Source of the DNA: an uncultured virus (IMG/VR IMGVR_UViG_3300023033_000001)
Taxonomy: Duplodnaviria; Heunggongvirae; Uroviricota; Caudoviricetes
Reading direction: 5' to 3' (one strand)
Length of the DNA stretch: 64,000 nucleotides
Virus record (IMG/VR): IMGVR_UViG_3300023033_000001
A program made the position numbers and the translations under genes. Below the pieces are notes generated by a model. It searched no databases and was not told the origin of the DNA. It saw nothing but the letters and a program-made list of their open reading frames with translations. Each line of letters begins with the position of its first letter. Positions within the stretch are counted from its first letter, which is position 1. Shown here one piece after another: positions 26,338-47,364 of this stretch.

Positions 26338-26357
26338 GTCTCATAGGTATACTTGAC

Positions 26358-26406
26358 CAGAGGGCGAGCCGCAAGCCCACCTGCCTTTAGGCGGTGGGTA
26401 GTTCAC
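26358..26406 (+). mobile_element. 49-bp single-hairpin LE-RE mini-element
   Basis: TTGAC|CAGAGGGCGAGCCGCAAGCCCACCTGCCTTTAGGCGGTGGGTAGTTCAC. Confidence 0.8.
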
Positions 26407-26719
26407 TTTGGATTCAAAAGGTCGAAAATTTGACACGTTACCATTAAGCGGTAAAAAGGGTTCATCAGACGTGAGAAGCGAGTAACGTCTGATGAACCCT
26501 TTAACTTTTTGCAGGAGTACGACCATGAAAGAATTTTTTGAAAAATACATCATCAATACTGAAGCAGCCATGAGTGGTGAATGGACTGATTATGATGCAT
26601 TCTGGTCTGCCGTGTGTCTCATGGTCGGACTGGTTGGTTTCATGGTGGCTGTGATTCTCATGTGAACGATTCCTGAGGGCGAAATAAAATCACATCCATA
26701 GAGTGGTCAGGTTTGCCTT

Positions 26720-26793
26720 GTACTAAAAAGTTACAAGCCTACCCTAGTAAATACATGGGTAAAATAAAAAATAGCGTAGAACGCAAATTAGAG
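26720..26793 (+). repeat. About 74-bp dispersed repeat, copy 1
   Basis: gtactaaaaagttac..taccct.gtaaataca...aaaatagcgta.aacgcaaa.taga matches the reverse complement of 53222-53294. Confidence 0.75.
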
Positions 26794-26823
26794 GCATTCT
26801 ACGCTATTTTTTATTTTACCCAT
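26755..26823. terminator. 27-bp perfect inverted repeat (terminator or cruciform)
   Basis: atgggtaaaataaaaaatagcgtagaa at 26755-26781 and its reverse complement at 26797-26823; lies just past the stop of the minus-strand 26839 gene. Confidence 0.7.
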
Positions 26824-26838
26824 AAAAGGGTGTCGGAA

Positions 26839-27627
26839 TTAACGACGGCCTCTCGGAGCCGGACGACGGGGAGCTTCTTTACGCTCTTCGTTGCGAGCAC
26901 GTTTGAGAGCCTGACGACGTTTGAATGCTTCCATACGCTGTTCCATATCACGACGAATTTTACGCTGACGGAAAGATTCTTTAGCTTCCTTGTCATCATC
27001 TTTGTCTTCATCTTCGCCATCTTCGTCTTCAGGATTGAAATATTCTTCAAGACTTTCAGCGAGTTCAGCATCCACATCTTCTTCTGTCTGTTCAAGAGAA
27101 ACTTCAACGCTGTTTTCATCATCCAGGTCAATGATGATTTTTGCACCGTCTTCATCGACTTTGACAGGAACTTCAGCATCATCCATCATGCAGATAGCTT
27201 CGGATTCAGGAAGGTTTTCTTTTTCTTCATCATCGTATTCTTTTTCAGGGCAGTCATAGCCTTTAAGGGCATCAACAACCTTGTCAACGATGTCTGCAAC
27301 TTCCATTGTGTCGATAAGATTCTCAGCCTTGTCGTCTTCTTTCTCGTCTTCTTCATAACGGCGAGCACGGAGCGATCGACGGGCAATAATTTCATCACGT
27401 TCCAAACGACGTGCAGGGCGTCGAAGGTTACCAACTTTGTGACGCGTCGAGCGTTCTTCACGAGCATCACGTTCCAAACGACGTGCAGGGCGAACAGTAC
27501 GTGCATGGCGTTCTTCACGTTCATCTTTACGGAAATTTACGATTGTACGGCGTGCAGGACGTTCCTCACGTTCTTCACTACGAATACGGCTAACTCTACG
27601 AATGTTGTTTTTGCGAATCATAATCAT
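26839..27627 (-). CDS. Arg-rich / acidic low-complexity protein (head scaffold or internal protein candidate)
   Basis: RPARRLERD repeats, D/E-rich core, Arg-rich tail; GAGGAG SD. Confidence 0.7.
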   Translation of the reverse strand: MIMIRKNNIRRVSRIRSEEREERPARRTIVNFRKDEREERHARTVRPARRLERDAREERSTRHKVGNLRRPARRLERDEIIARRSLRARRYEEDEKEDDKAENLIDTMEVADIVDKVVDALKGYDCPEKEYDDEEKENLPESEAICMMDDAEVPVKVDEDGAKIIIDLDDENSVEVSLEQTEEDVDAELAESLEEYFNPEDEDGEDEDKDDDKEAKESFRQRKIRRDMEQRMEAFKRRQALKRARNEERKEAPRRPAPRGRR

Positions 27628-27710
27628 TCTCCTCACAGAAATTTCGCGAATCTTCTGTCGTGTTTAAGGCGAAACACGAAACCAACGAACTGTTTGATAT
27701 ACCAAGGTCT

Positions 27711-29213
27711 TTAACAAGACAATGATTTTGTGAAACTGTTTTCACCGAAAGTCAATGTTACAGTACCTGTTCCTGAATGGGCAAACATACCCTGCACAGT
27801 CACAACGTCTTCACCTGTTTGAAACACAGCCATCGGAGGGAACATCATCATGGAATCGTCAGACACGTCGATATAAAGAGTTTTACGACGGTCAACAGGA
27901 CGGTCAAGTTTCACGTGAAGTGAAAAAGTTTCTCCGACAACAATATCATCTGTAGCAGTGACATGAGCTATTGTGTATGGGAACTTTTCTTCATCGACAC
28001 GACATGAAATTTCCTTATCGTTAAAATGTGCGGTAATTTCGTTTTCGTCATCCCAGATAACTACCGTAAAACTTTTCTCTTGCTCGTATGCATCAAACAC
28101 AATTCTCTCCGGACAAACCATAAGACGATCAACAGAAAGCCGAACGATTGTCTGTTCAGTAACTTTTCGTGAAAACTTCAATTTCATTTCAAGGGGTTTT
28201 CCGACTGATATGGTTTCCGTCTCGCATGTAAATGACTCAAACTCCAATGGATATTCTGCCACCGTTACCTTTTTCTCTACGGTCTTTCCGTTATAGCTTG
28301 CACGGACAACAGTTTCAAGACCATAGAAGCTGTCAGAGAATGAAGCCTCTGTTTCTCCTTTATTTACGACAACAACGAGACTTGCTATTCCAAGTTCGTC
28401 TTCACATTCAACACGGAACAGCATGTCGAAAGGGGCTGCTTTAGGCAACACAATTTTTCCTTCAATGGATGAGGCATCAGAAAGCACGCTTTCAGGCAGC
28501 TCCAAGTCAAATACCGTTTTAGTGTAAGGACAGTCAGACAGACAAATACGATGGCACACTTTACAGAAGCAAGGAACGTCAGGATAAGTAGGATCAATAG
28601 TCGGATCATCACCAGTCCCAGGAGTGTCACCGGTGTCGGTAGGCGGAAGGTCATCCGTTGGTGTGTCCTCATCGTGACAATGACAGTAAAGATGTTCGTA
28701 TCCCCAATGACCAAGCATGGATTCTCCACAGTCTTTTCCTTTACATCCTTCACATCCATCTTCACAGGTACATGGATTATAAAGATGTGAGTAATCATGC
28801 CAATCGTTAGGATTAGGCAAATCCTTCATATCATCAGCATTTGGAATGAAATCGCTTTCATCAGATGTACTCGAAGAGTCGGTACTTGTATTGTCGGAAC
28901 TTGAATCTGATGAAGACGTACCTGAACCGTCTGCTGTTTCACTTACTGTTCCTTTACGTAAGTACTCTGGAATAAACGTACCTCGGTATATTTTATCCTC
29001 ACTTACGTAATGCTTTTTCTCGTATGGTGCTAAGTTTAGTGGATCGGATGAAACAACAATGCAATGCTCATACATGCCGTTAGTCAGCTCTACCAGAACG
29101 CGGTCGCCTTGTGTAAAGGACTCCGACTCCACGACCTTGTAGAGTTTTCGGTAAACGGCATCATGTGTAATTGTCAAATGCGATTCACGTCTTCGTACAA
29201 AATCAATTCCCAT
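27711..29213 (-). CDS. Protein with a Ser-rich linker, Cys/His clusters and three Ig-like repeats
   Basis: Repeated beta-rich units (V.L..P.......V.......P...VF..GE..) in the C-terminal half. Confidence 0.65.
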   Translation of the reverse strand: MGIDFVRRRESHLTITHDAVYRKLYKVVESESFTQGDRVLVELTNGMYEHCIVVSSDPLNLAPYEKKHYVSEDKIYRGTFIPEYLRKGTVSETADGSGTSSSDSSSDNTSTDSSSTSDESDFIPNADDMKDLPNPNDWHDYSHLYNPCTCEDGCEGCKGKDCGESMLGHWGYEHLYCHCHDEDTPTDDLPPTDTGDTPGTGDDPTIDPTYPDVPCFCKVCHRICLSDCPYTKTVFDLELPESVLSDASSIEGKIVLPKAAPFDMLFRVECEDELGIASLVVVVNKGETEASFSDSFYGLETVVRASYNGKTVEKKVTVAEYPLEFESFTCETETISVGKPLEMKLKFSRKVTEQTIVRLSVDRLMVCPERIVFDAYEQEKSFTVVIWDDENEITAHFNDKEISCRVDEEKFPYTIAHVTATDDIVVGETFSLHVKLDRPVDRRKTLYIDVSDDSMMMFPPMAVFQTGEDVVTVQGMFAHSGTGTVTLTFGENSFTKSLSC

Positions 29214-29480
29214 AGTCACTCCGATCCATCTTTATTCACCATTAATAACTAATGGCTACTATTAAATCACACCAAAACTGGTGTGGAGGGATCTCTCATC
29301 GCAAGAAATATCTGCTTAAACAGGATGTTTCTTGCTCCGTTTATATCTCTGTCATGCACACGCTAGAAAGTTGGTGGCAGGAAACTATATCCAGTACAGA
29401 AGATACCACGTATTACCATCGCCACCAACGTCAGAATGGTAAAGAATACAACGGCACAGAAGACGCCTAGAAGAATGTTT

Positions 29481-29633
29481 AAAAACGCATCCATGTCGTT
29501 CACATTCCTGTACCTCTTCACAGGTATCACAAGGTTTCGTACAATCATTCCCGTCATCCTTGACCAGACAAATCATATCACAAACATTTCCAATGAACCC
29601 TTCCATCTTCAAATCCATTCTCACGTTTGTTTG
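29481..29633. repeat. About 150-bp imperfect direct repeat, copy B (RE flank and guide source)
   Basis: Aligns with 31166-31315; 47/48 identical over 29586-29633. Confidence 0.9.
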
Positions 29634-31165
29634 GTGAACTACCCACCGCCTAAAGTCGGTGGGCTTCAAATTCATTAGAATTTGATTTATCCATTCTCAC
29701 GAATTGGATTTCCTGTTTCAACGAACAGTCCACTCTACTAGAATTAAACCTAGTTTTGCTTCCCTGCCCTCCACAGGCATAAGTTCCGATAGTTCCTACC
29801 GTACTTTTAATCTTGCTTATCGCGTCATTTCGCAAATTGATTGCCGCGTTGTGGTCACGATTATGTTCTACACCACATTCTGGGCAAATCCATTTACGAA
29901 CGCTCAAATTCTTCACAGCTTCGTTCTTAAAACCACAATGACTGCACAACTGTGATGATGCGAACCACTTATCCGATTTAACCACGAAACAGTTATGAAA
30001 TTTGCTTTTCCATTCAAGCATATTCACAAACTTATTCCATGACACATCATTATAGTTTTTGGAATTGTGGCTGAAACGCATCATGCCTTTGATGTTCAAC
30101 GTCTCAACACCAATCACTTCATAACTACGGACAAGACGTAAAGTTTCTTTCTCCATCCAATCACGTCTTTTGTTAGCTATGTGTTCCTCAAATTTTGCCA
30201 ATCGTCGTCTAGCCTTTTCACGGTTTTTGGAGTCTTTCTTGGTTCTCGAAAAGTTCCTTTGCAAATGAGCCAGATGACGTTTTGCTTCTTGCTTGAATGG
30301 AACATAATTGTGTGCTGAGTGATTGTTTGAGTCAATGTAAGCCTTTGATGGTGAAAAATCCAGTCCGATAGCTTGGTTATCGTTACCAGAAAAAGACTTC
30401 TCTCTATCGTTCAAACTTTCATAGACGCAACAAATCGAAGCATAACAGCGTCCAGATTTTGTCACTTCGACGGTCAAATTCTTTCTCTTGATGCCTTTAG
30501 TATGGAACCATGCAGGAATGTGGTTATGACGAAACGTTACTTTGCCAATCTTTGGAATTTTAAGCCACATCTCATGTTCTGAAATAAGATCCTCCGACAG
30601 CATTACCTCGCTGAAAGAACAACCATCCTTTTTCTTCTTGAAACGTGGTTTTCCTTTCTTGCCCTTAAAGAACTCAGAGTATGATTTTTGAGCATCACGC
30701 CTAGCCTGTTGCAGAGCAACGGATGAAACTTCCTTCAGAAAAGGAAACAACTCACAAAGATCTTTCTCTAATGTGTATTTGAACCCTTTATAAATCTTGT
30801 TCTTTTCGTCTTTGTTCAGGTTACGACCTTTGATGTTATCAGCGTAAAATTGTTCCCTTGCTTCGACGTATTTGTTGTAGACAAAACGACGGCATCCACC
30901 AGTTTTGATGAACATTTGAAGTTGTTCTGGTGTTGGGTACAATCTGATTTTAAGACTACGCTTAATTTCCATTGGTAACTGACCTGTGTTACTGACCGAT
31001 ATGTGTGGTGGCAAACACTCGGTCAAAGTGTCTTTCGGGGATCAGCCTAGCCACCAAACATATAAATAGCATAACATGATGCTTCTTTCAAGTGCTTGTT
31101 TCAATTAAATTGGCTAGCTTTCATCCCACGGTCTAAAGCCCTTTGGTTTTCAAGCTCACAGTATG
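29634..31165 (-). mobile_element. IS200/IS605-family (IS1341-like, tnpB-only) element
   Basis: LE after TTTAT (31170-31166) with a subterminal hairpin; RE hairpin ending GGGTAGTTCAC at 29634; no tnpA. Confidence 0.9.
29650..30972 (-). CDS. tnpB: RNA-guided endonuclease TnpB
   Basis: KIRLYPT HTH start; RuvC IGLD, VETL and RDHNAAINL (D-E-D intact); CSHCG/CPECG zinc finger. Confidence 0.95.
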   Translation of the reverse strand: MEIKRSLKIRLYPTPEQLQMFIKTGGCRRFVYNKYVEAREQFYADNIKGRNLNKDEKNKIYKGFKYTLEKDLCELFPFLKEVSSVALQQARRDAQKSYSEFFKGKKGKPRFKKKKDGCSFSEVMLSEDLISEHEMWLKIPKIGKVTFRHNHIPAWFHTKGIKRKNLTVEVTKSGRCYASICCVYESLNDREKSFSGNDNQAIGLDFSPSKAYIDSNNHSAHNYVPFKQEAKRHLAHLQRNFSRTKKDSKNREKARRRLAKFEEHIANKRRDWMEKETLRLVRSYEVIGVETLNIKGMMRFSHNSKNYNDVSWNKFVNMLEWKSKFHNCFVVKSDKWFASSQLCSHCGFKNEAVKNLSVRKWICPECGVEHNRDHNAAINLRNDAISKIKSTVGTIGTYACGGQGSKTRFNSSRVDCSLKQEIQFVRMDKSNSNEFEAHRL

Positions 31166-31315
31166 ATAAATGCCTCGCGATCATTCACATTCCTGTAACT
31201 TTCAATCTGTATCCCAATATTCCGTATCATCACAGTCATCCTTGATCAGATAAGTTATTTTAGACTGATTTCCAATGAACCCTTCCATCCTCAAATCCAT
31301 TCTCACGTTTGTTTG
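31166..31315. repeat. About 150-bp imperfect direct repeat, copy A (contains the guide-matching site)
   Basis: Matches copy B; overlaps the 3' end of ORF 31260-31685. Confidence 0.9.
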
Positions 31316-31685
31316 ACAAGCCAGGCATCCTTTTTCCGTTTAATAATATCACAGCTTCGCAGTATAACTCATCATCACAGGACATGCCACGAAGACACCC
31401 GATCATAATATGACAGGCATCATATACGGTTGTAAACACATTCAGATTACGCCACGGTAAAGGTTTTTTTGGGTAATGGTAATACTTGACACATAAAGTG
31501 CATTTCTTACTGTTTCTACCTGTTTGAACGCCAAGAAGTTCGCCTCTTGCAGTCACTGCATCGAGATGTTTGTCTCCATGTTGATTGATTTTAATGGTTT
31601 CTTCAAGCTGCTCTAAACTTACTTTGTCATTCCGTGCCATCGTGTTCTTTATCCTGAGTATTTTCCTTGTGGTTTTTCTGTTCAC
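31260..31685 (-). CDS. Hypothetical protein whose 3' end matches the TnpB guide
   Basis: ORF of up to 141 aa; true start uncertain. Confidence 0.6.
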   Translation of the reverse strand: MNRKTTRKILRIKNTMARNDKVSLEQLEETIKINQHGDKHLDAVTARGELLGVQTGRNSKKCTLCVKYYHYPKKPLPWRNLNVFTTVYDACHIMIGCLRGMSCDDELYCEAVILLNGKRMPGLSNKRENGFEDGRVHWKSV

Positions 31686-32463
31686 GCTCTGCCTCTGTTA
31701 CCATCTCTAACATACGTGCAACCGTGTCAGGAGACATTGCAATAAGCATGTTATACAGCGAATCGACCTTCTTGTCATTCTCTGTCTGCACGGTCTGTAT
31801 CACTTTTCTAGCTTGTTCAAGAGTTTCCGTAGCTGTATCTTTCGCATTTCGGTAAACAGACTTTATCTGGTCAAAGTCCAGATGAAGAAGATCATCCGGA
31901 TTAAAGATTATCTGTTCTGCAGCATCAATGAAACGAAACAGACGTGGAAGACTGCCCAAGCGCATCGCAGAAAAGTAAGTCAAATACGCATTGATTCGGC
32001 TTTGAATCGTAGGCATGTTGTCCACAACATCCTGTGGTAAGTCAGACAATACCTGCGTAAGTCCTGCAAACTGTATTTCAGGCTCTTCGACGAATGGAAC
32101 ATTACGAATCGGTGCGTACTGAGTGATTGGAAATTCGTTCGACTGTACCTGTGAAGTAGTTTCAACAATGACATCCGGCTCTTTCTTTGTATGTCGTTTT
32201 GTGCTTTTTTGAACGTATTGCGTCGTAGGTTTATTTTGAGACAACTTCTTTTCAGCAGCCGGTTTCTCTTTGGAAGACTTACGTACAGTTGTCTTAGAAG
32301 ACTTCTTCACAGGAGGTTTTCGGGGTTTCACTGTCGATTTCTTTTTATTGGACACGTCAGTCTCAGTCGAATGTTTGTCCATATTTCCAAGAGACCATAC
32401 GTCATCAACAGATTTGTCTTCCTTAATACGGGTCTTCTTTTCTGTGTCTTTTTTCTTAGCCAT
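31627..32463 (-). CDS. Hypothetical protein with a Lys-rich N-terminus and helical C-terminus
   Basis: 278-aa ORF with an AGGAG SD. Confidence 0.75.
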   Translation of the reverse strand: MAKKKDTEKKTRIKEDKSVDDVWSLGNMDKHSTETDVSNKKKSTVKPRKPPVKKSSKTTVRKSSKEKPAAEKKLSQNKPTTQYVQKSTKRHTKKEPDVIVETTSQVQSNEFPITQYAPIRNVPFVEEPEIQFAGLTQVLSDLPQDVVDNMPTIQSRINAYLTYFSAMRLGSLPRLFRFIDAAEQIIFNPDDLLHLDFDQIKSVYRNAKDTATETLEQARKVIQTVQTENDKKVDSLYNMLIAMSPDTVARMLEMVTEAEREQKNHKENTQDKEHDGTE

Positions 32464-32531
32464 TATGCGTATCTCCTAGTCAACAGCATTACTATACGAA
32501 GTTATGATAGTTTGCTTTCTGCTCGATTTTA

Positions 32532-32579
32532 GTGACCTACCAAATGGCTAAAATACGTTTGCTTTCGGATTGAATCCTT
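32532..32579 (-). mobile_element. Degenerate 48-bp LE-RE mini-element
   Basis: Minus strand TTGAT|AAGGATTCAATCCGAAAGCAAACGTATTTTAGCCATTTGGTAGGTCAC. Confidence 0.6.
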
Positions 32580-32714
32580 ATCAAATCCTCTAGTGAGCTG
32601 CAAGAAACTCTTGTATTCAAAGATGGATGCACTCTATAACATGGACAACATTATTGCCCATGTATGGGTCATCTCCATAAATATCCGTAACCGAATTGAA
32701 GACACCTAAATACC

Positions 32715-33590
32715 ATGTACAGTTCAATACTGATTAACGTAAAAGACGAACACAGGTATCTCCCAGAATGGATTGAACACCATCTGAATCTTGGCTTCGA
32801 CCACATCTACGTTGTTGAAGACTTCAACTCTTCAAGCCATAGGGAACTTATCGACAAGTACATACAGACGAAGACGTTATCGCTTCATCGCATGGAAGAC
32901 TTTGGAATCCTCGACGAGCAGAAAAATTATACACCGTGGCGTCAGGTATGGATGTATAACAGATTTTTCACCTCAGGATTGGTACAGCCACATAAAGACG
33001 AATGGTGCGTGTTCCTCGACACGGATGAGTTCCTGATGTTTAAAGACGGGTATACACTCAACAACTGGATATCCGACCTGGAAACGAAAGCACGTGAAAC
33101 CGGCGATTGGTTTTCATACATCGTGTTGCGAAACTTCAATGCAAGTGGTCACATCTATGCTCCAAACGTACCTACAGTACAAGCATATAAACAATGGGAA
33201 TACAGAGACAACGACATGCTGTGCAAGTCAGTGGTCAATGTCTCAAGACCTTATAAATTCTTCTGTATCCAACGTGCGATGAGATACGAACAAACACAGC
33301 CTAGCAAACCACATGCACAGGAATTAGATACAGGTAATGTGTGGATAAATCATTATTTCACAAAGTCATGGGAAGACTGGCTGATTCGTATGAGACGTGG
33401 GTCACAAGACCCGAACCTTCGCAAACTTGAACAGTTCTTTGACATCTACAATAAAGATATGATGCGTTACAAATCACTTCTCATAGACTCATTCTATATG
33501 TGTCAGGATGAGTGGATGCAGGGTGGAACTGAGTTCATACCACAAGAGATTGCTCCTTGTATTGATGTTCTGAAAAGCTCTCTTCCGTGA
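32715..33590 (+). CDS. Glycosyltransferase (GT92 / GT2-like, GT-A fold)
   Basis: KDEHRYLPEWIEHHLNLGFDHIYV, FLDTDEFL (DxD), CKS and INHYFTKSWEDW. Confidence 0.88.
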   Translation: MYSSILINVKDEHRYLPEWIEHHLNLGFDHIYVVEDFNSSSHRELIDKYIQTKTLSLHRMEDFGILDEQKNYTPWRQVWMYNRFFTSGLVQPHKDEWCVFLDTDEFLMFKDGYTLNNWISDLETKARETGDWFSYIVLRNFNASGHIYAPNVPTVQAYKQWEYRDNDMLCKSVVNVSRPYKFFCIQRAMRYEQTQPSKPHAQELDTGNVWINHYFTKSWEDWLIRMRRGSQDPNLRKLEQFFDIYNKDMMRYKSLLIDSFYMCQDEWMQGGTEFIPQEIAPCIDVLKSSLP

Positions 33591-33634
33591 GCTACCCACA
33601 GCTCGAATCTGTTAAATGTCAGTTGGTAGTTCAC
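33587..33634. mobile_element. RE-RE inverted remnant
   Basis: GTGAGCTACCC...TTGGTAGTTCAC; its TGA is the stop codon of the glycosyltransferase gene. Confidence 0.65.
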
Positions 33635-33726
33635 CTCTCCTGAAAAATCTCCGATGAAGTCTGTGCAGTCATGTTAGGCGAAATTGACTCCCTTGAGTGT
33701 TATGCACGATGACATAGATCAGAAAT

Positions 33727-33775
33727 AAAAGACAAAAACCACAAGCCAAATAAAGGCTTGTGGTTTTTGTCTTTT
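33727..33775. terminator. Intrinsic terminator-like hairpin
   Basis: aaaagacaaaaaccacaagcc-N7-ggcttgtggtttttgtctttt. Confidence 0.75.
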
Positions 33776-33867
33776 TCATGGTGCTGTTTTAATCCCTTGG
33801 TTTTCTTTTGTGGTAGTGTCGCTATAAGACAAAATGGGTTTGTCTTATATTATAGCAGAGGATTGAA

Positions 33868-34359
33868 ATGGCACTAATATGGAAAAAGAAACGAATGATA
33901 CGGTCTGAAAGGATTCATCGAATCATCGAGATGGCTCTTAAAAAAGCTAAATACCAAGATCGTGTCGCTGATTTGCTGCCACAGATTGCACAGAATTGGT
34001 GTCTTTGTACATATTGCCGAATGTACGACCCAGACAACATAAATTACCGTGGGTGGCGTAAAGAACTCATCGCTCATATAGGAATGCTTAAATCGATTCC
34101 TGTAAAAGGCGATAAGGAAAAATGGACACGAGATGAAGTCATAAATACAAGCGAGTATAACAATGTGGATGTAATTCGCTGTGTATGTGACTTCAAACTT
34201 GACGATGAGGATGAAATTGACTTCACGCAATCAATAAGAAAAGATCTGTATCGTGATTGTGCAGAGAATGCAGAAACAATCGTGTCGCTTATCTCAAGTG
34301 ATTCGTTGCCCTCAGAAAAGCTCTATAAGATATTCCCACTTAAAACAGATCGATTCTGA
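33868..34359 (+). CDS. DUF29-like paralogue 2 of 3
   Basis: EMALKKAKYQ...QNWCLCTYC...YRGWRKEL. Confidence 0.75.
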   Translation: MALIWKKKRMIRSERIHRIIEMALKKAKYQDRVADLLPQIAQNWCLCTYCRMYDPDNINYRGWRKELIAHIGMLKSIPVKGDKEKWTRDEVINTSEYNNVDVIRCVCDFKLDDEDEIDFTQSIRKDLYRDCAENAETIVSLISSDSLPSEKLYKIFPLKTDRF

Positions 34360-34383
34360 CAGAAAATGAGGTGAACATTAATT

Positions 34384-37865: not shown

Positions 37866-39545
37866 TCAAGACAACGACCAGTTTCCGTTAAGAAAATCGT
37901 TATACGAACCTATAAGACCCTTTCCTCCTTTTTCTGTGTTTTCTGCTGCTTCTTTCGTTGCTTTAGTTGAGGATTTATTACCGTTTTTGCTACGACTTTT
38001 TATTGTCTTTCCAAGACCTTTCTGCCAGAGTAATGATTTCTTAATATAGTCCATTCGGCTTCGGTCAATCTCTACGTAATCGCATGTGATGGATGATCTG
38101 CACTCCGCCCCCATCAGACGGTCAATCAGTGCAAGGTGGTCTTTGAAGAGCATAATTTTGTACGAATCGATTGTACCTTCTACTTCAAGCAGATACACAT
38201 GTTGTTTCTTGTATGCTGAATCGACGCGACAAATTCTACCGACTGTCTGAATAACATTCTGAACACTGAACGAGGTGTTAAACATGATAATGTTATTCGC
38301 TTTCTGCAGGTTTCGTGAAGCAGTACCTGATGAAGTCATAATTACAACGTCACGCGGTTGCATGATTACTTCAATCTCAGAACGTTTGTTTTCAGGGATT
38401 TCTCCTGACAGGATATGGACTGTATGGACGCCAAACTCTGTTCGGTGTTTCTCAACAAATTCACGGACAAGTTCTACGGTCTCAAGGTACTCGACATAAA
38501 TCAAACATGCCTCATTTCGGTTCATCACAAGTTTTAACGTTTCTGACAAGAGCTTGAATTTGTTTGAGACAAAACCCTCAGGCAACGACAAGGTATTACC
38601 ACCATCGTCTGTAATCGGATTGCCATCAACAACACGCTGCAAATCGTGAAGTCTTGCTCCCCAGTCCTTTTCATCCTTGGTCACCAGGAGACCCTGTGCA
38701 GCACTAACATAAGCATCTGAAAGTTCATCATCTAATATGGTCTTCAGAAACGAGTACTCTACATCATAAGTTTTTGCACCCTTGATAGTTAGCATGTCGA
38801 TGTACTTGTTCAGCTCTTCCATATTTTGGTAGCCAATGATTTCCTTGATTATACGCTTGTGCTGATACGGATTAAATGCCTGACCCTTTTTACGCATGTA
38901 AATCTCACGGTCTTTTGTCACACAATATCTGTCACGAAATGCGAACCATGAAGTAAACACACGAGGGAACGTGAAGTGGTACAGGTTATAAAGTCCCTCA
39001 ATGCTGTTTACGAGTGGTGTACCGGTTAAGCAGTACACGCCAATACATTTCTGACGTACTGACCATAACGACTTTGACAACTCACTCTTTTCGTTCTGCA
39101 AGCAATGTGCTTCATCTATGAACAGGTATGTCGGGAATGTTTCTGTTATTCGTAACAAAGCTGGAACAATCTGTTTCAGATAGGTATGTTCCACAATGAT
39201 GATTTCGTGGTTCATCACCTGTTCCCATGTTGCATCTTTGTTCTTTACCGTAAGCAAAAGGTATGGCTTTCCTATCTTCGTAACACACTCACGTTCATAC
39301 GCAATGGACGCAGCTTTCGGAACTGCAAAAATACATCTAACGGGTGCTTTAAACCCTTCAACGCCTTTAGCACAAAGCTCCATCGCATAATGCAGCGACA
39401 GAAGCGTTTTGCCGCAGCCACACTGTAACGCAATGACTGAAGACTTCATCTTTCTCAGCTTATCAAGAGCCGTTTCTTGTTCTTGATTCAACGAATATCC
39501 CGTGTATACCCACGTATCTCTAAAGTCAGTTTTTTTCTTTGCCAT
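37866..39545 (-). CDS. SNF2-family (SF2) helicase
   Basis: CGCGKT, FIDEAH, LTGTP.N, NLQKAN and QTVGRICR. Confidence 0.9.
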   Translation of the reverse strand: MAKKKTDFRDTWVYTGYSLNQEQETALDKLRKMKSSVIALQCGCGKTLLSLHYAMELCAKGVEGFKAPVRCIFAVPKAASIAYERECVTKIGKPYLLLTVKNKDATWEQVMNHEIIIVEHTYLKQIVPALLRITETFPTYLFIDEAHCLQNEKSELSKSLWSVRQKCIGVYCLTGTPLVNSIEGLYNLYHFTFPRVFTSWFAFRDRYCVTKDREIYMRKKGQAFNPYQHKRIIKEIIGYQNMEELNKYIDMLTIKGAKTYDVEYSFLKTILDDELSDAYVSAAQGLLVTKDEKDWGARLHDLQRVVDGNPITDDGGNTLSLPEGFVSNKFKLLSETLKLVMNRNEACLIYVEYLETVELVREFVEKHRTEFGVHTVHILSGEIPENKRSEIEVIMQPRDVVIMTSSGTASRNLQKANNIIMFNTSFSVQNVIQTVGRICRVDSAYKKQHVYLLEVEGTIDSYKIMLFKDHLALIDRLMGAECRSSITCDYVEIDRSRMDYIKKSLLWQKGLGKTIKSRSKNGNKSSTKATKEAAENTEKGGKGLIGSYNDFLNGNWSLS

Positions 39546-39565
39546 GTTGTTTCCTACCTATATGA

Positions 39566-40189
39566 TCACCAGTCCGCATTAAACACAACGCATTCAGTAT
39601 CCCAATCAATATCTCTAAGTATGGAACGAATACCTGTGAGCAGTTTCGACACATGGTCGAAGTGTGAATCAGAACACCTACAAGGAAATGCTTTGTTTGT
39701 TATTCGGTTGACATTACCATGAATACGATTTTTTGTTTTTTCGTCTGCGGTCACCGTGTACGAAATCAAAACACCAAAATCATCATATCCTAACACACAA
39801 CCTTTCTGATTCTTTAAGTATTTCTCTATATCAATCAGGCATTTTTTAGCACTGTCAAGAAGTTCCTCACATTGTGCTCGTGTGATGACCATATCTTTTG
39901 CATAATAATCGTCATCATACCCAAAGAACTCCAAAAGAAAATGGAACTTACGAAAGTAAAGAGCTTCAGAATCAAACGTCTCTGTAGAGTCACATGAAGC
40001 ATTAAACTGAGAGAGAGCTTTGAACAAAGCTAGCTCTAGAGTACAGTCATTATTCTCTGCCCATACTTTAAGACGACCAAGTTCGTACAGAACACCTGCG
40101 TCATTCAATGAACAGGTCAATAAATCAGGATTGAACGGTTCAGAAGAAACGACTCTAGGCTTAACATAAAAATAAGCATCAAGACCCAT
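39566..40189 (-). CDS. Hypothetical protein (MGLD...YFRK...W type)
   Basis: 207-aa ORF. Confidence 0.7.
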   Translation of the reverse strand: MGLDAYFYVKPRVVSSEPFNPDLLTCSLNDAGVLYELGRLKVWAENNDCTLELALFKALSQFNASCDSTETFDSEALYFRKFHFLLEFFGYDDDYYAKDMVITRAQCEELLDSAKKCLIDIEKYLKNQKGCVLGYDDFGVLISYTVTADEKTKNRIHGNVNRITNKAFPCRCSDSHFDHVSKLLTGIRSILRDIDWDTECVVFNADW

Positions 40190-40199
40190 AGTTCACATC

Positions 40200-40664
40200 T
40201 CACATGTCTCTGTAATTGTCTTCACCACGAACACTTCGGCAGACCTCCTCATAATTTTCAATGCCAAAACCACATTCGTACACTTCAAACACTTGCACAT
40301 GTGTGTCTTTAAGACGACGTTGAAGTGACCGAGGAAGCTCCGAAAACGTGTGCTGCGAGGGTTCCTTGAAAAACCGGCAATCCGTAAGTGCAAAGTCACC
40401 ACGTAAGTATTTACGAAGAATGGCGAATCGTTTCTTGCCGTCCACCACTTCATACGGTCTGTCTTTTCCTTTGAGATTTGGATTCTCACCGATAACGAAT
40501 GGAATTACCGATGTGTCAATCAGAAGACTTTCGATGTAACAGGTAAAGTCCTCAAGATGATAACCTTGCAGAACGTCTTCATCTGGATCAACGATGTAAG
40601 ACGTATTAAGTAACTGATCAACCGTCATTTCCATTCGTTCGACTCTCACATTAGGAACAATCAT
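40200..40664 (-). CDS. DUF262 (ParB/Srx-fold) domain protein
   Basis: IESLL....IP...YEVVDGKKRF and FSELP..LQRR. Confidence 0.75.
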   Translation of the reverse strand: MIVPNVRVERMEMTVDQLLNTSYIVDPDEDVLQGYHLEDFTCYIESLLIDTSVIPFVIGENPNLKGKDRPYEVVDGKKRFAILRKYLRGDFALTDCRFFKEPSQHTFSELPRSLQRRLKDTHVQVFEVYECGFGIENYEEVCRSVRGEDNYRDM

Positions 40665-41264
40665 TTAATCCACTCCATTTTTATTTGGAACAACTTCGCC
40701 ATAAGAAAGCGTATGTGCAGGGTCAAGATACCATACAAGCATATCGAGTGAAACCTTTGCAAGATAAACGCAAACCTTGTTGAACTTTTCAAGATTACCA
40801 AACCCCATTCCGATGACATAACGCATTGCACTGATGCAACGCGTGCTTTCTTCTGGATTGCTAGATTCTGGCAAATCAGGTGCATCTGGAAGAGACGAAA
40901 TCGCTTCATATGCATCACTATACAGTGCCTTTGAACAGATGCCTTCTGGCGTCAGCTCCGATAACGTGTTAATGAGATGATCCATGAAGGGGACAAAACC
41001 GTCCTTATTGATGGCTTCAAGAAACACTTGCTTGTCTAACGGTTTTACGCCATAGCACGTCACGTACTTGCCTCTACGTTTCTCCACTCTCGATGTAATG
41101 CGTTCGGAATAGGTGGCCTGTTCAATGGCAACCCATCTATTATCGAGAACGGAAAGCATGTCGATGATGGTTGGAAACACCCATACGATAAAACGTCTGT
41201 ATTCAAGCTGTGACAGCTGTCTCATAATTAACTCCCTTTGCAGTCCAACTGTAAACACGACCAT
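40665..41264 (-). CDS. Hypothetical protein
   Basis: ORF of up to 199 aa within the minus-strand operon. Confidence 0.55.
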   Translation of the reverse strand: MVVFTVGLQRELIMRQLSQLEYRRFIVWVFPTIIDMLSVLDNRWVAIEQATYSERITSRVEKRRGKYVTCYGVKPLDKQVFLEAINKDGFVPFMDHLINTLSELTPEGICSKALYSDAYEAISSLPDAPDLPESSNPEESTRCISAMRYVIGMGFGNLEKFNKVCVYLAKVSLDMLVWYLDPAHTLSYGEVVPNKNGVD

Positions 41265-41583
41265 TCTTCACGATGTCGCCATTTCCAAGTTTTATTTCGA
41301 CGATTTGACCGGCATACTTTTGCATTACACTCTTGATGCATTCAAGCTGCTTGCGTGAAAACGAACCGCGTTCGTTATACTGGTTCACAAGACTGGTACA
41401 GAACTCTGCATCATGCTTATTGAATCCTACGCCATTATTAAACGACGTAACAGAGTTGTCCTGTTCCGAGGCTTCCTGATACGCATAGACGAATAACAAC
41501 GCATGAATTGCTGTATCGTCCTTCTCGGAAATTTGGGTTTTGAGTTTCGTGACAATTTCTTTTTTGCTTGTGAATGTAGCCAT
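41203..41583 (-). CDS. Conserved-looking small phage protein
   Basis: ALL.VY..Q...EQ....T...NGVGFN..DA...S......S.KQ pattern; AGGAG SD; promoter box upstream. Confidence 0.75.
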   Translation of the reverse strand: MATFTSKKEIVTKLKTQISEKDDTAIHALLFVYAYQEASEQDNSVTSFNNGVGFNKHDAEFCTSLVNQYNERGSFSRKQLECIKSVMQKYAGQIVEIKLGNGDIVKNGRVYSWTAKGVNYETAVTA

Positions 41584-41674
41584 GTGTTTGTCTCCTAATG
41601 GCGAAACGGTTTATCGACAAACACATGTATAACACTCCCAACCTGTCAGAGGATGCACAGCACCATGACAAAGA

Positions 41675-42289
41675 TCATACGGATTCCGTTATCATGTCAT
41701 GCGGAAACCTACAGTTAAATTCGACCCCTAAAAATTCACCTTCGTTACCGTTGTAACGCACATAGCTCTTATAGTTAGCTGGGTACACGTCTTGTAGATT
41801 ATACGTCCGAACAGTTTCACCGGTTTCTCCATTGATTGCAAACAAACGTGCCTTTCCTACGTGATCCATTGGTTTGTCATGGTAGTCATAAAACCACTTC
41901 TTCAATTGAGAATCTTGCTCACAGATAGCTTTGAACTTCATATAACTGAACAAGTGACCGTATAATTTACAAGTTTGACCAGTTCCTTGTACGTCATACA
42001 CATCATAAATAATCGAATTGTCCATCCCGTCTTTTTCAAACTTAACACAAAACACAGTCTGATGACTGTATCTTACATTAGACGGAGTATACGTCTCTTT
42101 CACATCGTCCAGACGACACCATGCTTTAACCTCATGTGGTTCATATTGTGAACTCCACCTATACTGATACCAATGATTGTTTCTCCATTCTGCCTCAGAG
42201 ATGTTGCCCTTATCCGTCAGAATAATGTAGCTGCCGGACTCATCACCGGGTGTCTGTTTACCGTCATACCATGTAATTCCCATTGTCAC
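41675..42289 (-). CDS. Hypothetical protein
   Basis: 204-aa ORF. Confidence 0.65.
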   Translation of the reverse strand: MTMGITWYDGKQTPGDESGSYIILTDKGNISEAEWRNNHWYQYRWSSQYEPHEVKAWCRLDDVKETYTPSNVRYSHQTVFCVKFEKDGMDNSIIYDVYDVQGTGQTCKLYGHLFSYMKFKAICEQDSQLKKWFYDYHDKPMDHVGKARLFAINGETGETVRTYNLQDVYPANYKSYVRYNGNEGEFLGVEFNCRFPHDMITESV

Positions 42290-42321
42290 TCTCCAACTAT
42301 CGTAGTTTGGTTATTATCCTG

Positions 42322-42888
42322 CTAGTCCCACATGTCTAAATAATTTTCAGCGAGAAGCGAGAACCCTTCTTTTCGGATTCGATTATGCTCTTTCCATAAT
42401 GATTCATCTGTGTCCTCTGTCTGGCCAGTCATATCAGAAAGAGATACTTCAAAAGCCATCTTTATCTTATTCAATACCTCATGCCATGTTTCAGGAGTCA
42501 TTCCTGCTTTGTAACTCGCACCTTTTCTAATCCATACGTCCAAAGCAGGAATCGCAAATTCTGCCAAAGCACACCCGAACTCCCAACATGCGTATGGCGT
42601 AGGATATCCTTCCAACATGCAGAAGACAAAATCCATCGGATACCACAAGTCTCCGTCCTGTGCGGTTATTTCATGACACGTATCGTGAAGTGTCCATTTC
42701 GGAAACCAGGCATCCTCTTCAAGGTCGTCATCAGACGGAAACGTGTACGAACAAATGACCGTTTGACCGTCACTTAAACGAACCATGAATTTGCCGAAAT
42801 AAGGATTCCTATCGTCATTGAGTTCTGTTTTTACCTTGTACGGTCTTTCCTCTGAAAACTTTTTCCACTTGAATTGCTCAAGAGACAT
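42322..42888 (-). CDS. Hypothetical protein
   Basis: W.EVL.KI..AFE...EGF.LLAE....MWD C-terminus. Confidence 0.7.
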   Translation of the reverse strand: MSLEQFKWKKFSEERPYKVKTELNDDRNPYFGKFMVRLSDGQTVICSYTFPSDDDLEEDAWFPKWTLHDTCHEITAQDGDLWYPMDFVFCMLEGYPTPYACWEFGCALAEFAIPALDVWIRKGASYKAGMTPETWHEVLNKIKMAFEVSLSDMTGQTEDTDESLWKEHNRIRKEGFSLLAENYLDMWD

Positions 42889-43203
42889 ATTACACTATCC
42901 AATAAGTTATGTTGTCGTACATCATGCAAGGAACTTGGATGTCATATTCTTTCATATCCGCACCAATCCAATCCCATGTTTCTCTCTCCCCTTGTGTATT
43001 GCGTGTGGGCAACAGACGTTGCCCACGAGTCCTTATCGTTTCAGCAGAATGGCATTCCCATATTGGGCTATGTTCTTTTCAGCAAAGTAGTTATCCTTGC
43101 CCCATGCATCTGTCATATGAAGTTTAATCGGTTCGGCTTTATACCCATTCACCATCAAAGCGGCGATAAGGCATGTTTTCGCCTCAACCGTAATAACCAC
43201 TTC

Positions 43204-43241
43204 GTGAACTACCCACCCGCTTTAGCGGGTGGGTAGTTCAC
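43204..43241. mobile_element. Perfect 38-bp RE-RE palindrome
   Basis: GTGAACTACCCACCCGC-TTTA-GCGGGTGGGTAGTTCAC. Confidence 0.85.
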
Positions 43242-43245
43242 ACAC

Positions 43246-44250
43246 TTAAAATGTGTGTATTTCAAGGGGAGTTATCATCTCACGCAATTCTTCACCTTGA
43301 GTGATAGCATTAATGTATTTGTCCCCAAATTGCCTTAGCAGTTTTAAGCACAAATCCAAACATTTTATTACATCATTTGGAAATTCGTTTATGTCATCTT
43401 CATAAAAAGCATTACCAATAGATTCAATGTAATTTTTGGATGTTTTCACAAGGTCAACAGAACTATTTGTAGTCTGCTCCAAGACACGTGTTAAAACTTT
43501 AGTGACACTCTTTTGAGTGTGTGAGTTCAAATCGATTTCATCAGGGAAAACGTTTGCATATTTTTGAAAGTCTGAATAGCTCATGGAGACACCAAGAATG
43601 TCTAAAACTGAGGTGTTCACTCTATCGAACAAGTCTTGATTCTTAAATCCATATATCACCTTTCGGTGCTTCGTTGTGTCTTCAAGACCTATCTGCCTAA
43701 AATAATGAACACCGTCTTCGTCAAGTTCAAGTTGATCATGTTTATTTAAAATTTCTTCTGCATAAATATTTGGGATTGGATATCCGTTATATTTTTTCAT
43801 CAAATATTCAACTTTGCCACTGACTTCTGCCCAATACCATCCTTCATAGTTTTTGATATCGTATCGGATCAGGGCTCTAGCGAACTCACCAGAACCCTTT
43901 ATGTCCATATTTTTAGCGAGTGCAATGTTTTTATAACTACCATCTACAATTCGGAACACTTCTAATGCCATTATATCATTCTGGTGATTAGAAAGCTCAG
44001 ACTCTTCGTAAGTGGTTGATGTGATTACCCTAAGTAATTTAGCACTTTTTAGAAACTTTTTTGGGTTGCTTGTTCCCAAATAACCACCAATTGACGCATA
44101 AGCCTTTTCAATAATATCACGCATTTTAACGAAAAATGTTTCAACATCTGGCGGTGTAATATCATAGATTGCACAAATTTCCCATTGCACATGACTTATG
44201 GATTCCCCATAAGTCGAAGTGTGATGTCTGTTTTTTCTAATCAGTGCCAT
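43246..44250 (-). CDS. Hypothetical protein with a basic leader; AT-rich
   Basis: 334 aa; MALIRKNR...YGES; has its own promoter box at 44364-44372. Confidence 0.75.
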   Translation of the reverse strand: MALIRKNRHHTSTYGESISHVQWEICAIYDITPPDVETFFVKMRDIIEKAYASIGGYLGTSNPKKFLKSAKLLRVITSTTYEESELSNHQNDIMALEVFRIVDGSYKNIALAKNMDIKGSGEFARALIRYDIKNYEGWYWAEVSGKVEYLMKKYNGYPIPNIYAEEILNKHDQLELDEDGVHYFRQIGLEDTTKHRKVIYGFKNQDLFDRVNTSVLDILGVSMSYSDFQKYANVFPDEIDLNSHTQKSVTKVLTRVLEQTTNSSVDLVKTSKNYIESIGNAFYEDDINEFPNDVIKCLDLCLKLLRQFGDKYINAITQGEELREMITPLEIHTF

Positions 44251-44390
44251 ATCGCTACCTCACTTCATTTAAGATAAAAGTCTCGATAGCAACCTTTCCA
44301 ACCATTTCAATGTTGCTATCATCACACGATCTTATAGCACACTATTTCTTACAGTATCTCTAACAGCACCACGAAACAAAAAGTCTCCTA

Positions 44391-44412
44391 CTTTAGGCGG
44401 TGGGTAGTTCAC
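44391..44412 (+). mobile_element. Half-hairpin RE remnant between divergent promoter boxes
   Basis: CTTTAGGCGGTGGGTAGTTCAC. Confidence 0.75.
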
Positions 44413-44550
44413 GTAATAATGATAGCTGCACTTTCTTTTGGTGTGGTGCTGGAAAAAGGACGTTCGACTTCTGTGATATAGTAGTGTGAGTATGTAGCAA
44501 CTGTGGGTGGTACGGTTGCTGTCGAATGGAAGTAATCCTAATATCTGGAT

Positions 44551-44931
44551 GTGTTGATTATGCGAAAACGTGATCGTTCAAACGCTTTTGAAATGACAAC
44601 TTTGAGAAAAGCACGTTCTGGCTTGCCGGTAAACATATACCTGGACGACAGTGGATCTTATCTTAATTGTGATTATGAACCTAGAATCCAATTTCAACCA
44701 AATAAAGGAAACTGTCCGGACATTCGTTCTCTGATACCTATGACAATTTCAGACGAACCTACTATTCCGATAAAGAATTATCAGTCACGGTTAAATGGTG
44801 TTGGAAGTAATGACATCTCTTTGATTATGTCATTCGTCATTGCAAACAAAACAAATCTTCTCAGATTATGTGACCGTAATGATGAATACGATATCTCCAA
44901 TTTTTTGGATGACATGGTTAAAGTCTCGTGA
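44551..44931 (+). CDS. Hypothetical protein (EM..L....GLPVNI type)
   Basis: 126 aa; the TGA stop lies within GTGAATTACCC. Confidence 0.7.
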   Translation: MLIMRKRDRSNAFEMTTLRKARSGLPVNIYLDDSGSYLNCDYEPRIQFQPNKGNCPDIRSLIPMTISDEPTIPIKNYQSRLNGVGSNDISLIMSFVIANKTNLLRLCDRNDEYDISNFLDDMVKVS

Positions 44932-44962
44932 ATTACCCACCGTCTTTAGCGGGTGGGATTCA
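44928..44962 (-). mobile_element. RE hairpin copy
   Basis: GTGAATTACCCACCGTCTTTAGCGGGTGGGATTCA. Confidence 0.75.
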
Positions 44963-44988
44963 AAACAGAGTATCTGGTGAGGTGTTGC

Positions 44989-45972
44989 ATGTTTCGTTCA
45001 TTTGAATCAGTTAAAATTGATGATCCTGTACTTGAACTTGAATGGGAAGACCTGTCATTGATTGGCGGAGCTACTGGTCTTGCCCTAAGTCTTAAAAACA
45101 GTCTTTCGAAGTTCCTAAGAAATTATGGAGAACACGACATTCTTGAAGACTTATATCATGCAGTGGCGCTTGGTCTTAGTAATCTCCAAGAAATCGGTAT
45201 GTTTGACGGTTTTTTGTCAAATCCTAATATTGAGTTTCGTGGAAAGACTAATATTTCCATACAGAATAAACTTGATAGACATCACATACATTCAGCAGGT
45301 CGTCCTCTTGAAAAGGTCTTTAACGACTTGATTGGTATTAGAATTATCGTAGAAGATTATTCAGTATGGGAATCTGTAAAACATAAGTTTGATTCATCGG
45401 TGTGTACTGTCGTTGACATGAGATGCGGAAAGTTCCCTGATGATGGTTACAGAGCTGTTCACGTTTACTTCCAAGCTGATCACTTGCATTATCCTGTTGA
45501 ACTTCAATTCGTGTCTGAGCATGACAGTCAGTTCAACGCATGGCAACACGACCATGCATATAAGTCATCATGGTTTGCTCCTTCTGTAGGAAAGAAATTG
45601 CGTGAGTTATACGATGACTGGAAAATTCAGACAGAGGATGAGTATGTGTCAGAGCTCACTAAACTGTCATCAATGGTTACGTACTCAGAAAAAAGGACGT
45701 GGGAAGGTACGAAACTTGTTGCGTGCAGATTCGGTATAAAGGGGTGTATAGGGTACATGCCTGAAACGATTCACGAGTTAATGTACCTTTATCGTGAACT
45801 TTGTCCCTATTGTAGAAGACAGATTCCAACAGTCGATGTAACTGTCGTTAAGGGAGAGAGTTATGCTGAGTTTAGTCCATGTACGATCTACGCTACCTAT
45901 ACTGATTTTTATGCGGCGATATTCCATGATTTGTTAAGAAAACCTGAACGGCACTCACGGTGTACACCATGA
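44989..45972 (+). CDS. RelA/SpoT nucleotidyltransferase-domain protein (small alarmone synthetase-like)
   Basis: NDLIGIRII, DDGYRAVHVY and PVELQ; GAGGTG SD before ATG 44989. Confidence 0.8.
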   Translation: MFRSFESVKIDDPVLELEWEDLSLIGGATGLALSLKNSLSKFLRNYGEHDILEDLYHAVALGLSNLQEIGMFDGFLSNPNIEFRGKTNISIQNKLDRHHIHSAGRPLEKVFNDLIGIRIIVEDYSVWESVKHKFDSSVCTVVDMRCGKFPDDGYRAVHVYFQADHLHYPVELQFVSEHDSQFNAWQHDHAYKSSWFAPSVGKKLRELYDDWKIQTEDEYVSELTKLSSMVTYSEKRTWEGTKLVACRFGIKGCIGYMPETIHELMYLYRELCPYCRRQIPTVDVTVVKGESYAEFSPCTIYATYTDFYAAIFHDLLRKPERHSRCTP

Positions 45973-46000
45973 ACTACCCACCCGCTAAAGGCGGTTGGTA
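45970..46000 (-). mobile_element. RE hairpin copy
   Basis: TGAACTACCCACCCGCTAAAGGCGGTTGGTA; its TGA is the stop of the RelA/SpoT gene. Confidence 0.75.
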
Positions 46001-46040
46001 TGAATTAGGATATTAAGGTGACATGGAGACATTAAAGACA

Positions 46041-46072
46041 TCGTTACCACCGCCTAAAGGCGGTGGTAACGA
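46041..46072. repeat. Palindrome of the same hairpin family
   Basis: TCGTTACCACCGCC-TAAA-GGCGGTGGTAACGA. Confidence 0.75.
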
Positions 46073-46421
46073 GTGCCTTCGAGACACAATGATTAACATC
46101 ATTCATCCACCAATTTATCGTTATTCACTCTTCTTCAATCTTCTTCAATCTTATTCTACTTGATGATGTGCCACGAGTCTGCAATTCTGTACTCAGTTCT
46201 TTGTACTGTTCCGAAATGAGTATTTACTTTGTGGATTCTCTTCGGTTCGCTAGCTTTAGTAGAGCAAAGAGGATCAAACATACCGTAACGGCTATCATGG
46301 ATTCTATAATAGATTCTATCGTCCACATGTCTCTCCTACATTAGGCAATTAACAAATTTTAAATCTAAACACAATTTGAAACGACCCGTGATAGAATCCA
46401 CTACTCAAGCACGAATAAGAG

Positions 46422-46862
46422 TTACATGTTCTGTTTTTGTTCGGTTGCAATGGAAACTCCACCCAACGTGTTAGCCCAATTCTCAGGGAAATGACAGTAA
46501 TACCAGAGGATACTGTAATTCCCTTTCCGTCTTCTCCAATAGAGAATAACTGATGGAATAGCTACCACAAATAAGTAAAGAGGACCCAAAAACAAAGACT
46601 GAACACTGTGACCTGACTCATGCCTTAATATGTCTTCCTTAGAATCCTTGTGCGTGAAAATAAAAGGTCCCAATGACCAACACGTGTGCCAAGGATGTTT
46701 AACCCTCCACACGGTCATACCTGTATGTTCATTTTTCCAAGGTTCGATATCATGGAGTACTATTAAAACGAGCAAGGCAGCAATCACTTGTGGTAACTGC
46801 CATAAAAACAAAAGCCATACAACAGGGGAACTCAAGTTCGCATAATTGAAATCTGCTTTCAT
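46422..46862 (-). CDS. Membrane protein with an HExxH motif
   Basis: WQLPQ, SLGPFIF and RHESGHSVQS..LGPLYL. Confidence 0.75.
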   Translation of the reverse strand: MKADFNYANLSSPVVWLLFLWQLPQVIAALLVLIVLHDIEPWKNEHTGMTVWRVKHPWHTCWSLGPFIFTHKDSKEDILRHESGHSVQSLFLGPLYLFVVAIPSVILYWRRRKGNYSILWYYCHFPENWANTLGGVSIATEQKQNM

Positions 46863-46905
46863 AATGAAAAATCCTATTATGCCCCTGTAAGTACAACTGT
46901 TTGAT

Positions 46906-46954
46906 AATGATGCGAGCCGCAAACCCACAGGCTAAATCCGCGTTGGTAGTTCAC
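46906..46954 (+). mobile_element. 49-bp LE-RE mini-element (degenerate stem)
   Basis: TTGAT|AATGATGCGAGCCGCAAACCCACAGGCTAAATCCGCGTTGGTAGTTCAC. Confidence 0.7.
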
Positions 46955-47359: not shown

Positions 47360-47364
47360 GTGAA

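Follow-up and report, generated by a model that had tools for sequence, protein, structure and literature searches.

Single-hairpin mini-elements in a tailed-phage genome as probable scars of fused IS605-group ends

A 64,000-nucleotide stretch of an uncultured tailed virus (Caudoviricetes; IMG/VR record IMGVR_UViG_3300023033_000001), hereafter the window, carries five units of 48-49 bp, here called minis, each combining a left-end (LE) leader, one hairpin and a right-end (RE) tail. We consider these minis to be, very probably, non-excising scars produced by LE x RE fusion in insertion sequences (IS) of the IS605 group (TnpA/TnpB). A first-pass annotation had offered two options, namely collapse by LE x RE hairpin recombination, comparable to the formation of solo long terminal repeats, or a mobile unit in which one hairpin serves both ends; collapse proved well supported, mobility did not. 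The case for collapse consists of full and collapsed alleles at the same site (in a sister family, not at the window's five sites), three crossover classes, and a mismatch between guide and cleavage site. The chimeric left-right structure and the guide mismatch are observed in the minis themselves, while the sister family additionally displays same-site full/mini pairs and repeated independent collapse, from which we infer the collapse route for the window's five copies.

The proposed route would begin with a full element inserting 3' of its target pentamer. Its LE and RE hairpins, which share short identical blocks, would then join with the loss of everything between them, leaving the target site, a left leader with the left guide, one hairpin and a right tail. 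The join would most likely arise by replication slippage or template switching at the hairpin feet, and could also link ends that belong to separate insertions, in which case the intervening host DNA would be deleted or rearranged. Such a scar should not excise, since its single left guide would be unable to direct the right-end cut and it offers one hairpin, while TnpA of IS200/IS605 is described as an obligate dimer binding two (PMC3479197). The right cut is reported to follow the guide, a mutated right motif having shifted it to another TTCAC (PMC10055086).

The five minis and the fit of their guides

All five units are present in the window, and a pattern of leader, hairpin and tail gave three exact matches there against none in 100 dinucleotide shuffles (0/100); the pattern was derived from the copies themselves, so that this count shows their reality and is not a blind p-value. 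A chance origin was rejected. The right tail alone, with at most one mismatch, occurs 19 times in the window vs 6.4 +/- 2.4 times in shuffles. The 49-bp length first given for three copies was correct, although the count begins at the base after the pentamer, not at the pentamer itself, and ends at the terminal TT(C/G)AC. Of two degenerate copies reported as 48 bp, the one at 32532-32579 keeps that length, whereas 6987-7034 is better placed at 6986-7034 (49 bp), because its guide AAAT fits TTCA at 6982-6985 and a relative about 87% identical to the window (G001, 98.6 kb) has TTTA there. Guide fits are given out of three, guide base 1 pairing with site base 2, guide 2 with site 1 and guide 4 with site 4, as in IS608. 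The minis and the associated target site are as follows.

26353-26357, + strand: target pentamer TTGAC, left cleavage site of mini 1; guide CAAG fits TGAC 3/3 with a spacer of 14; TTGAC also stands at the homologous L034 junction
26358-26406, + strand: mini 1, 49 bp; LE leader with guide CAAG, a hairpin mostly of RE type, and TAGTTCAC; guide fit left 3/3, right 2/3
35483-35531, + strand: mini 2, 49 bp, after TTGAC 35478-35482; LE leader (AAAG-guide family), RE-type hairpin and TAGTTGAC; guide fit left 2/3, right 2/3
46906-46954, + strand: mini 3, 49 bp, after TTGAT 46901-46905; LE leader with guide CAAA, a hairpin whose 5' arm is LE-like and 3' arm decayed, and TAGTTCAC; guide fit left 3/3, right 1/3
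6986-7034, + strand: mini 4, decayed, 49 bp, guide AAAT after TTCA; guide fit left 3/3 (spacer 15), right 1/3
32532-32579, - strand: mini 5, strongly decayed, 48 bp, after TTGAT 32580-32584; guide AAAG fits left 1/3, right 2/3

The five copies do not form one homogeneous family, pairwise identity being 29-41 of 49-53 columns, and their 5' tetranucleotides are CAAG, AAAG, CAAA, AAAT and AAAG for minis 1 to 5. Each contains a single hairpin in place of the two subterminal hairpins, one per TnpA monomer. A strong hairpin is predicted in single-stranded DNA for only two, 26358 and 35483 (-11.2 and -12.2 kcal/mol), those of 46906 (-4.2 kcal/mol, with another fold), 6986 (-4.9) and 32532 (-2.8) being decayed. 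The hairpin of 35483 is purely right-type, 26358 has a right-type 3' arm and 46906 a left-like 5' arm, and the leaders, hairpins and tails match the LEs and REs of the window's tnpB element and 341-bp element.

The minis could instead be right ends that lack their 5' part, the supposed left leader being upstream sequence of the RE itself. Ordinary right ends in Methanothrix (5 loci) and at L043 do carry a GAGC(C/T)G-CAAG leader before the hairpin, all five loci returned by a genome scan for leader, hairpin and tail are ordinary Methanothrix right ends, and a ~50-bp unit at G001 14870-14945 looks like a 5'-truncated right end, not a left-right fusion. The Methanothrix and L043 REs fit their own end (CAAG/TGAC), however, whereas the guides of the window minis fit the upstream site; the mini leaders match true LEs at 47360 and 18833, and in the sister family described below the leader is identical to the parent's LE. 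Such an origin is largely refuted for minis 1, 3 and 4, and for the set as a whole we give it very little credence.

Four of the five minis lie between genes, mini 2 overlaps the stop of the open reading frame (ORF) at 34907-35515, and mini 1 scores terminator-like, as might be expected if the hairpins had been retained at gene boundaries to act as terminators or to stabilise RNA. This too is highly improbable, given that terminator-like sites in 26000-36000 occur at chance level (9 vs 7.4 +/- 3.2), that three of the five hairpins are decayed and that relatives lack the minis; an intergenic position is, moreover, what survives selection. Terminator domestication as the origin of the units was rejected.

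The guides allow a further comparison: in IS200/IS605, the cleavage site is selected by a tetranucleotide at the 5' foot of the respective hairpin, three of its four bases pairing with that site (PMC3201880; PMC3479197). All four window LEs fit their outside site 3/3 at a spacer of 13-15, four of seven window REs fit their own end 3/3, and in other strains a derivative of the tnpB element joins beside TTTGT 34442-34446, as its AAAA guide predicts. On viral contigs, 78 of the 121 hairpin-and-tail matches listed (119 loci) fit the right end, through GAAG/TCAC (51), CAAG/TGAC (26) or CATG/TGAC (1). Among the minis, the left site is fitted 3/3 in three of five (26358, 46906 and 6986), the right end 3/3 in 0/5, and both ends in 0/5.

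The same separation is seen more widely. In the 109 distinct contexts among the 121 viral matches listed, the guide fits the right end only in 67, the left only in 20, both in 2 and neither in 20 (Fisher p 5e-9), and with one row per element type the right/left/both/neither counts are 46/12/2/20 (p 2e-4). The two loci that fit both resemble ordinary REs in which an upstream match has arisen by chance. Phages thus commonly carry single-hairpin units with a left guide (12 element types among the matches listed), and this guide is systematically unsuited to the right end. Self-consistent minis, defined by a left TT(C/G)AC, a (C/G)AAG guide, hairpin and tail, were found at 0 viral loci in a scan of the collection, using a pattern that matches mini 1 locally and had no positive control inside that collection.

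Full and collapsed alleles in a sister family

A sister family with target TTGAA and guide CAAT was gathered by scanning for one left end, which gave 43 matches once L215, a double report of L214, had been dropped: 32 minis of 46 bp, 7 long elements, and 4 LEs without an RE in the available DNA. The long elements are a 1717-bp form with tnpA and tnpB and tnpB-only forms of 1324 and 1451 bp. The full 1717-bp element of L213, with a TnpA of 134 aa, and the 46-bp minis of L181 and L204 occupy the same locus, with both flanks 95-99% alike over 0.8-2.5 kb; L192 and L200/L208/L211 likewise represent one locus (L192 vs L200, 95% over 5 kb), collapsed at different points.

The parent's two ends share only short blocks, of 4, 11 and 5 nt, and crossover points are therefore mappable. 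Across 23 junction-class combinations at 22 sites, the mini hairpins are left-type in 13, right-type in 7 and hybrid in 3, exactly the classes that result when crossing over takes place in one or another of these blocks. Of eight mini variants, five bear a private substitution, each at one site only and none recurring at two. The longest block received 3/23 crossovers and the hairpin feet the other 20/23, an underuse with a binomial p of about 1e-4 vs length-proportional use, for sites that may not be independent; this placement fits polymerase stalling and slipping at the hairpin feet, or co-conversion in a heteroduplex. As a separate observation, the mini at L216 2501-2560 has identical stretches of ~13 bases to its left and right, which is unusual in a family without target duplication.

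One right junction of the sister family is found with three left TTGAA junctions, in L177 (full) and in L214 and L179 (minis), the TTGAA at the left end of L214 being about 112 bp upstream of that of L177; L183 and L198 likewise show several. Shared right junctions point to joins between neighbouring insertions or to left-end-directed adjacent deletions. An extension of the collapse model would accordingly hold that the non-excising scars retain a working left end, from which TnpA cuts at another nearby target motif via the left guide and rejoins, with loss of the adjacent DNA, and the position of four of the five window minis, where G001 has other, longer sequence, agrees with it. We nevertheless judge this extension unlikely: the pattern would equally result from two separate insertions and a later collapse between them, the left-junction shift may predate collapse and belong to the full-length element, and the segments missing relative to G001 have, as read by eye, no clear guide-fitting motif at their end.

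Mobility would require that one hairpin serve both cuts, in the manner of repetitive extragenic palindromic (REP) elements, with TnpA supplied in trans. Identical copies of a 46-bp mini recur across many sites, the two most frequent forms at 10 and 6 junctions, and minis outnumber long elements. In 35483, which has TTGAC at its left and its right end, one base separates the guide from a fit to both; in Haloquadratum walsbyi, 6/6 strain-specific ISHwa23 insertions have the 52-bp form, and the authors of that study raised the possibility (PMC3119063). Identical copies are, however, also expected from repeated collapse of one parent, and mobility is opposed by the guides, which fit both ends in none of the window minis and in 2/109 viral loci among the matches listed, by the empty scan for self-consistent units, by the two hairpins that the TnpA dimer needs (PMC3479197) and by the dependence of the right cut on its motif (PMC10055086). 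Membership among mobile non-autonomous IS200/IS605 elements fails on two counts, the presence of two hairpins and a right-end guide complementary to the terminal tetranucleotide. That some 46-49-nt units still move or act, with TnpA in trans and either one hairpin or a second lent in trans, is in our estimation improbable, with 35483 as the closest candidate; if true, no IS200/IS605 transposons would be smaller, and the units would represent a living stage between IS ends and REP elements.

The five sites in relatives and other hairpin units

The window (42% G+C) is part of a large tailed phage and encodes a tail sheath, an amidase and an intein-bearing ligase and helicase, most ORFs being without a family (58 of 126 listed ORFs scanned); locus L032, on a 243-kb contig, is 100% identical to it. 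Close strains were found in bovine gut metagenomes, and four sequencing runs (X1-X4) were compared over 27600-47550, a stretch that covers minis 2, 3 and 5.

G001 lacks all five minis and shows a near-clean +49 indel at one only, 46906, where the net difference is +49 bp without target-site duplication, accompanied by a 3-nt shift or, on the alternative reading, by three substitutions on the right-hand side of the junction. At 6986 and 26358 it carries instead CRISPR (clustered regularly interspaced short palindromic repeats) mini-array modules of ~660 and ~500 bp, respectively; at 32532 homology stops at TTGAT and ~190 bp follow, including the 5' end of the next gene; and mini 2 ends a 2-kb island missing from G001. 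In X1 and X4, 47 window letters at the mini 2 site are replaced by 65 others, X3 being similar, and the joints listed for the run contigs include no precise 49-bp skip at 32532, 35483 or 46906. An X2 contig carries mini 46906 without the 341-bp element, which makes this scar the older event. Minis whose ends belong to the same family also occur, at different positions, in two other phages, G002 and G003, their guides all fitting the left site, and mini 2 is 94% alike over 50 bp to one in G002; the latter also has a full element with tnpA and a tnpB-like gene, whose left-end guide/target pair is the same as that of one G002 mini. Scanning viral contigs for the window-type left leader gave 32 loci, one relevant (L239, the G002 mini) and 31 unrelated, with no full-length parent.

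Several points weigh against reading the minis as collapse scars. Minis 35483 and 32532 fit neither site. At 46906, G001 and L034 share TTGATAAT, so that the junction can be read 3 nt further right, without target-site logic. In the sister family, minis occupy 22 junction sites and long elements 8, an excess that calls for frequent collapse or for selection and that mobility would also give; a search of the 43 loci found no clean empty site, and the records may include re-sequenced copies of one phage, making sites not fully independent. The check suggested at first pass, for full or empty orthologous loci, gave the full/mini pair of L213 with L181 and L204, whereas neither G001 nor L034, which lack the minis, yielded a full-length element at any of the five sites of the window, and X1-X4 showed none at the three minis covered.

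About 16 related hairpins occur in the window, including the five minis, ordinary left ends and ordinary right ends. Three of the units below, the first listed, go beyond the first-pass finding; units with two right tails or two left leaders are impossible from insertion of an intact element and show that these hairpins recombine or switch template in this genome. The other two are two-ended elements.

43204-43241, no strand: RE'-hairpin-RE palindrome, two right tails and no left end; it differs from its reverse complement at 2 positions, both of them in the loop
33587-33634, no strand: decayed RE'-...-RE unit, 48 bp
18834-18889, no strand: LE-hairpin-LE' unit with two left leaders; both guides fit the site on their respective outer side (GAAG/TCAC, AAAG/TTGC)
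47019-47359, - strand: 341-bp two-hairpin non-autonomous element, an ordinary palindrome-associated transposable element (PATE); target TTCAC 47360-47364, both guides fit 3/3
29634-31165, - strand: tnpB-only IS605/IS1341-type element; target TTTAT 31166-31170, ORF 29650-31026 (Pfam OrfB_IS605, HTH_OrfB_IS605, Cas12f1-like_TNB)

The 341-bp element has a precise empty site in X1 and X2, its RE is ~91% alike to that of the tnpA-bearing element of G002, and blastn against plasmids gave no match. In the tnpB element, the pairs AAAA/TTAT and GAAG/TCAC fit 3/3 and the acidic RuvC residues appear intact as read by eye; two paralogous genes (29385-29675 and 31260-31685) flank it. It is absent here from X1 and X4, in which 29633 is joined to 31354 with 41 other letters. 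At 34441/34442, joints in X1, X2 and X4 place ends of the tnpB-element family, with an internal deletion of 29804-31117 in X1; this is a mobile two-ended derivative. No Y1 transposase was found among the 58 scanned ORFs, and tblastn with TnpA found none in the window.

Other arrangements were noted around these ends. On the - strand, 17612-18889 comprises a left end (18889), host-type genes at 18226-18597 (DUF3846) and 17713-18222, and a right end at 17612-17710, ~95 bp of which resemble the RE of the tnpB element; the gene at 17713-18222 lies elsewhere in G001, and cargo capture or rearrangement between ends is possible. Two-hairpin units of ~100-120 bp, between PATE and mini in size, stand at 45969-46069 (-) and at G002 80020-80110. 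Window 42956-46437 is absent from G001, which has another gene there, and right ends are packed between its genes, including a RelA/SpoT-domain gene (44953-45972). Window 37465-37790 is a CRISPR mini-array whose repeats are 36 nt long; an anti-repeat and a stretch resembling trans-activating CRISPR RNA come after it, with no cas genes among the scanned ORFs; by resemblance we take it to be type II-A-like. At least five such modules occur in G001, some at the sites of minis 6986 and 26358, and a repeat fragment is retained in the window just before 26358. A LAGLIDADG intein lies in both the DNA ligase and the helicase gene (19661-25569), and 15119-19536 is inverted relative to G001. An Rfam search of the window gave 0 matches, and the flank protein at 25573-26334 had no tblastn match in annotated phages.

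Meaning and comparison with known systems

In Haloquadratum walsbyi, HqIRS46 and ISHwa23 form 52-bp terminal-only PATEs by repeat-mediated core deletion, and their mobility was left open (PMC3119063). The present data give a comparative answer to that question, terminal-only units being probably not mobile, because in TnpB-bearing elements the cleavage motif on the left differs from that on the right, and a scar inherits the left guide only. The sister family, in turn, maps where collapse happens, which makes it an inexpensive system for testing deletion driven by hairpins. After precise excision the site cut by TnpB is restored, and TnpB cuts the scarless empty site (PMC10055086); collapse puts ~49 bp between target motif and guide target, and the scar would thus resist TnpB. 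If true, this would be a way for a phage to shed the element and could explain why scars outnumber full elements.

Literature on terminal-only or core-deleted IS605 units yielded PMC3119063 only, and titles and abstracts none on single-hairpin TnpB-element remnants in phages, in searches that did not cover most subscription journals. The window minis are terminal-only PATEs in a phage, a structure known since 2011. They share with those of Haloquadratum a size of ~50 bp, fused left and right termini, one palindrome, deletion between near-terminal palindromes, and the lack of terminal inverted repeats and transposase; they also have IS605-type ends, a target oligonucleotide 5' of the left end, no coding capacity, and no target-site duplication as judged at 46906 vs G001, the one near-clean site. 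They differ in residing in a bacteriophage alongside RE-RE and LE-LE fusions, and the sister-family ends share 4-11-nt blocks where Haloquadratum PATEs have a perfect 19-22-bp repeat.

The ISGst IS605-group elements of Geobacillus stearothermophilus and their PATE-like derivatives are similar in their right-end motif TTCAC, in covarying guide and target motifs, and in tnpB-only and gene-free derivatives moved in trans, but there the PATE-like elements were found with left and right ends in pairs, whereas a mini has a single hairpin whose guide fits only on the left (PMC10055086). In IS608, as here, a tetranucleotide guide at the 5' foot of the hairpin directs cleavage 5' (left end) or 3' (right end); each of its two ends has its own guide, and the spacer here is 13-15 nt (PMC3201880). 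REP elements and their TnpA-REP transposase, the REP-associated tyrosine transposase (RAYT), provide a single imperfect intergenic hairpin arising from IS200/IS605-like chemistry, whereas the minis have no GTAG at the 5' foot, no RAYT, TnpA or linked TnpA-REP gene found in the window, tetra- or pentameric cleavage sites rather than CT, and a low copy number (PMC3479197); membership in the REP/RAYT group was rejected on the first two of these differences.

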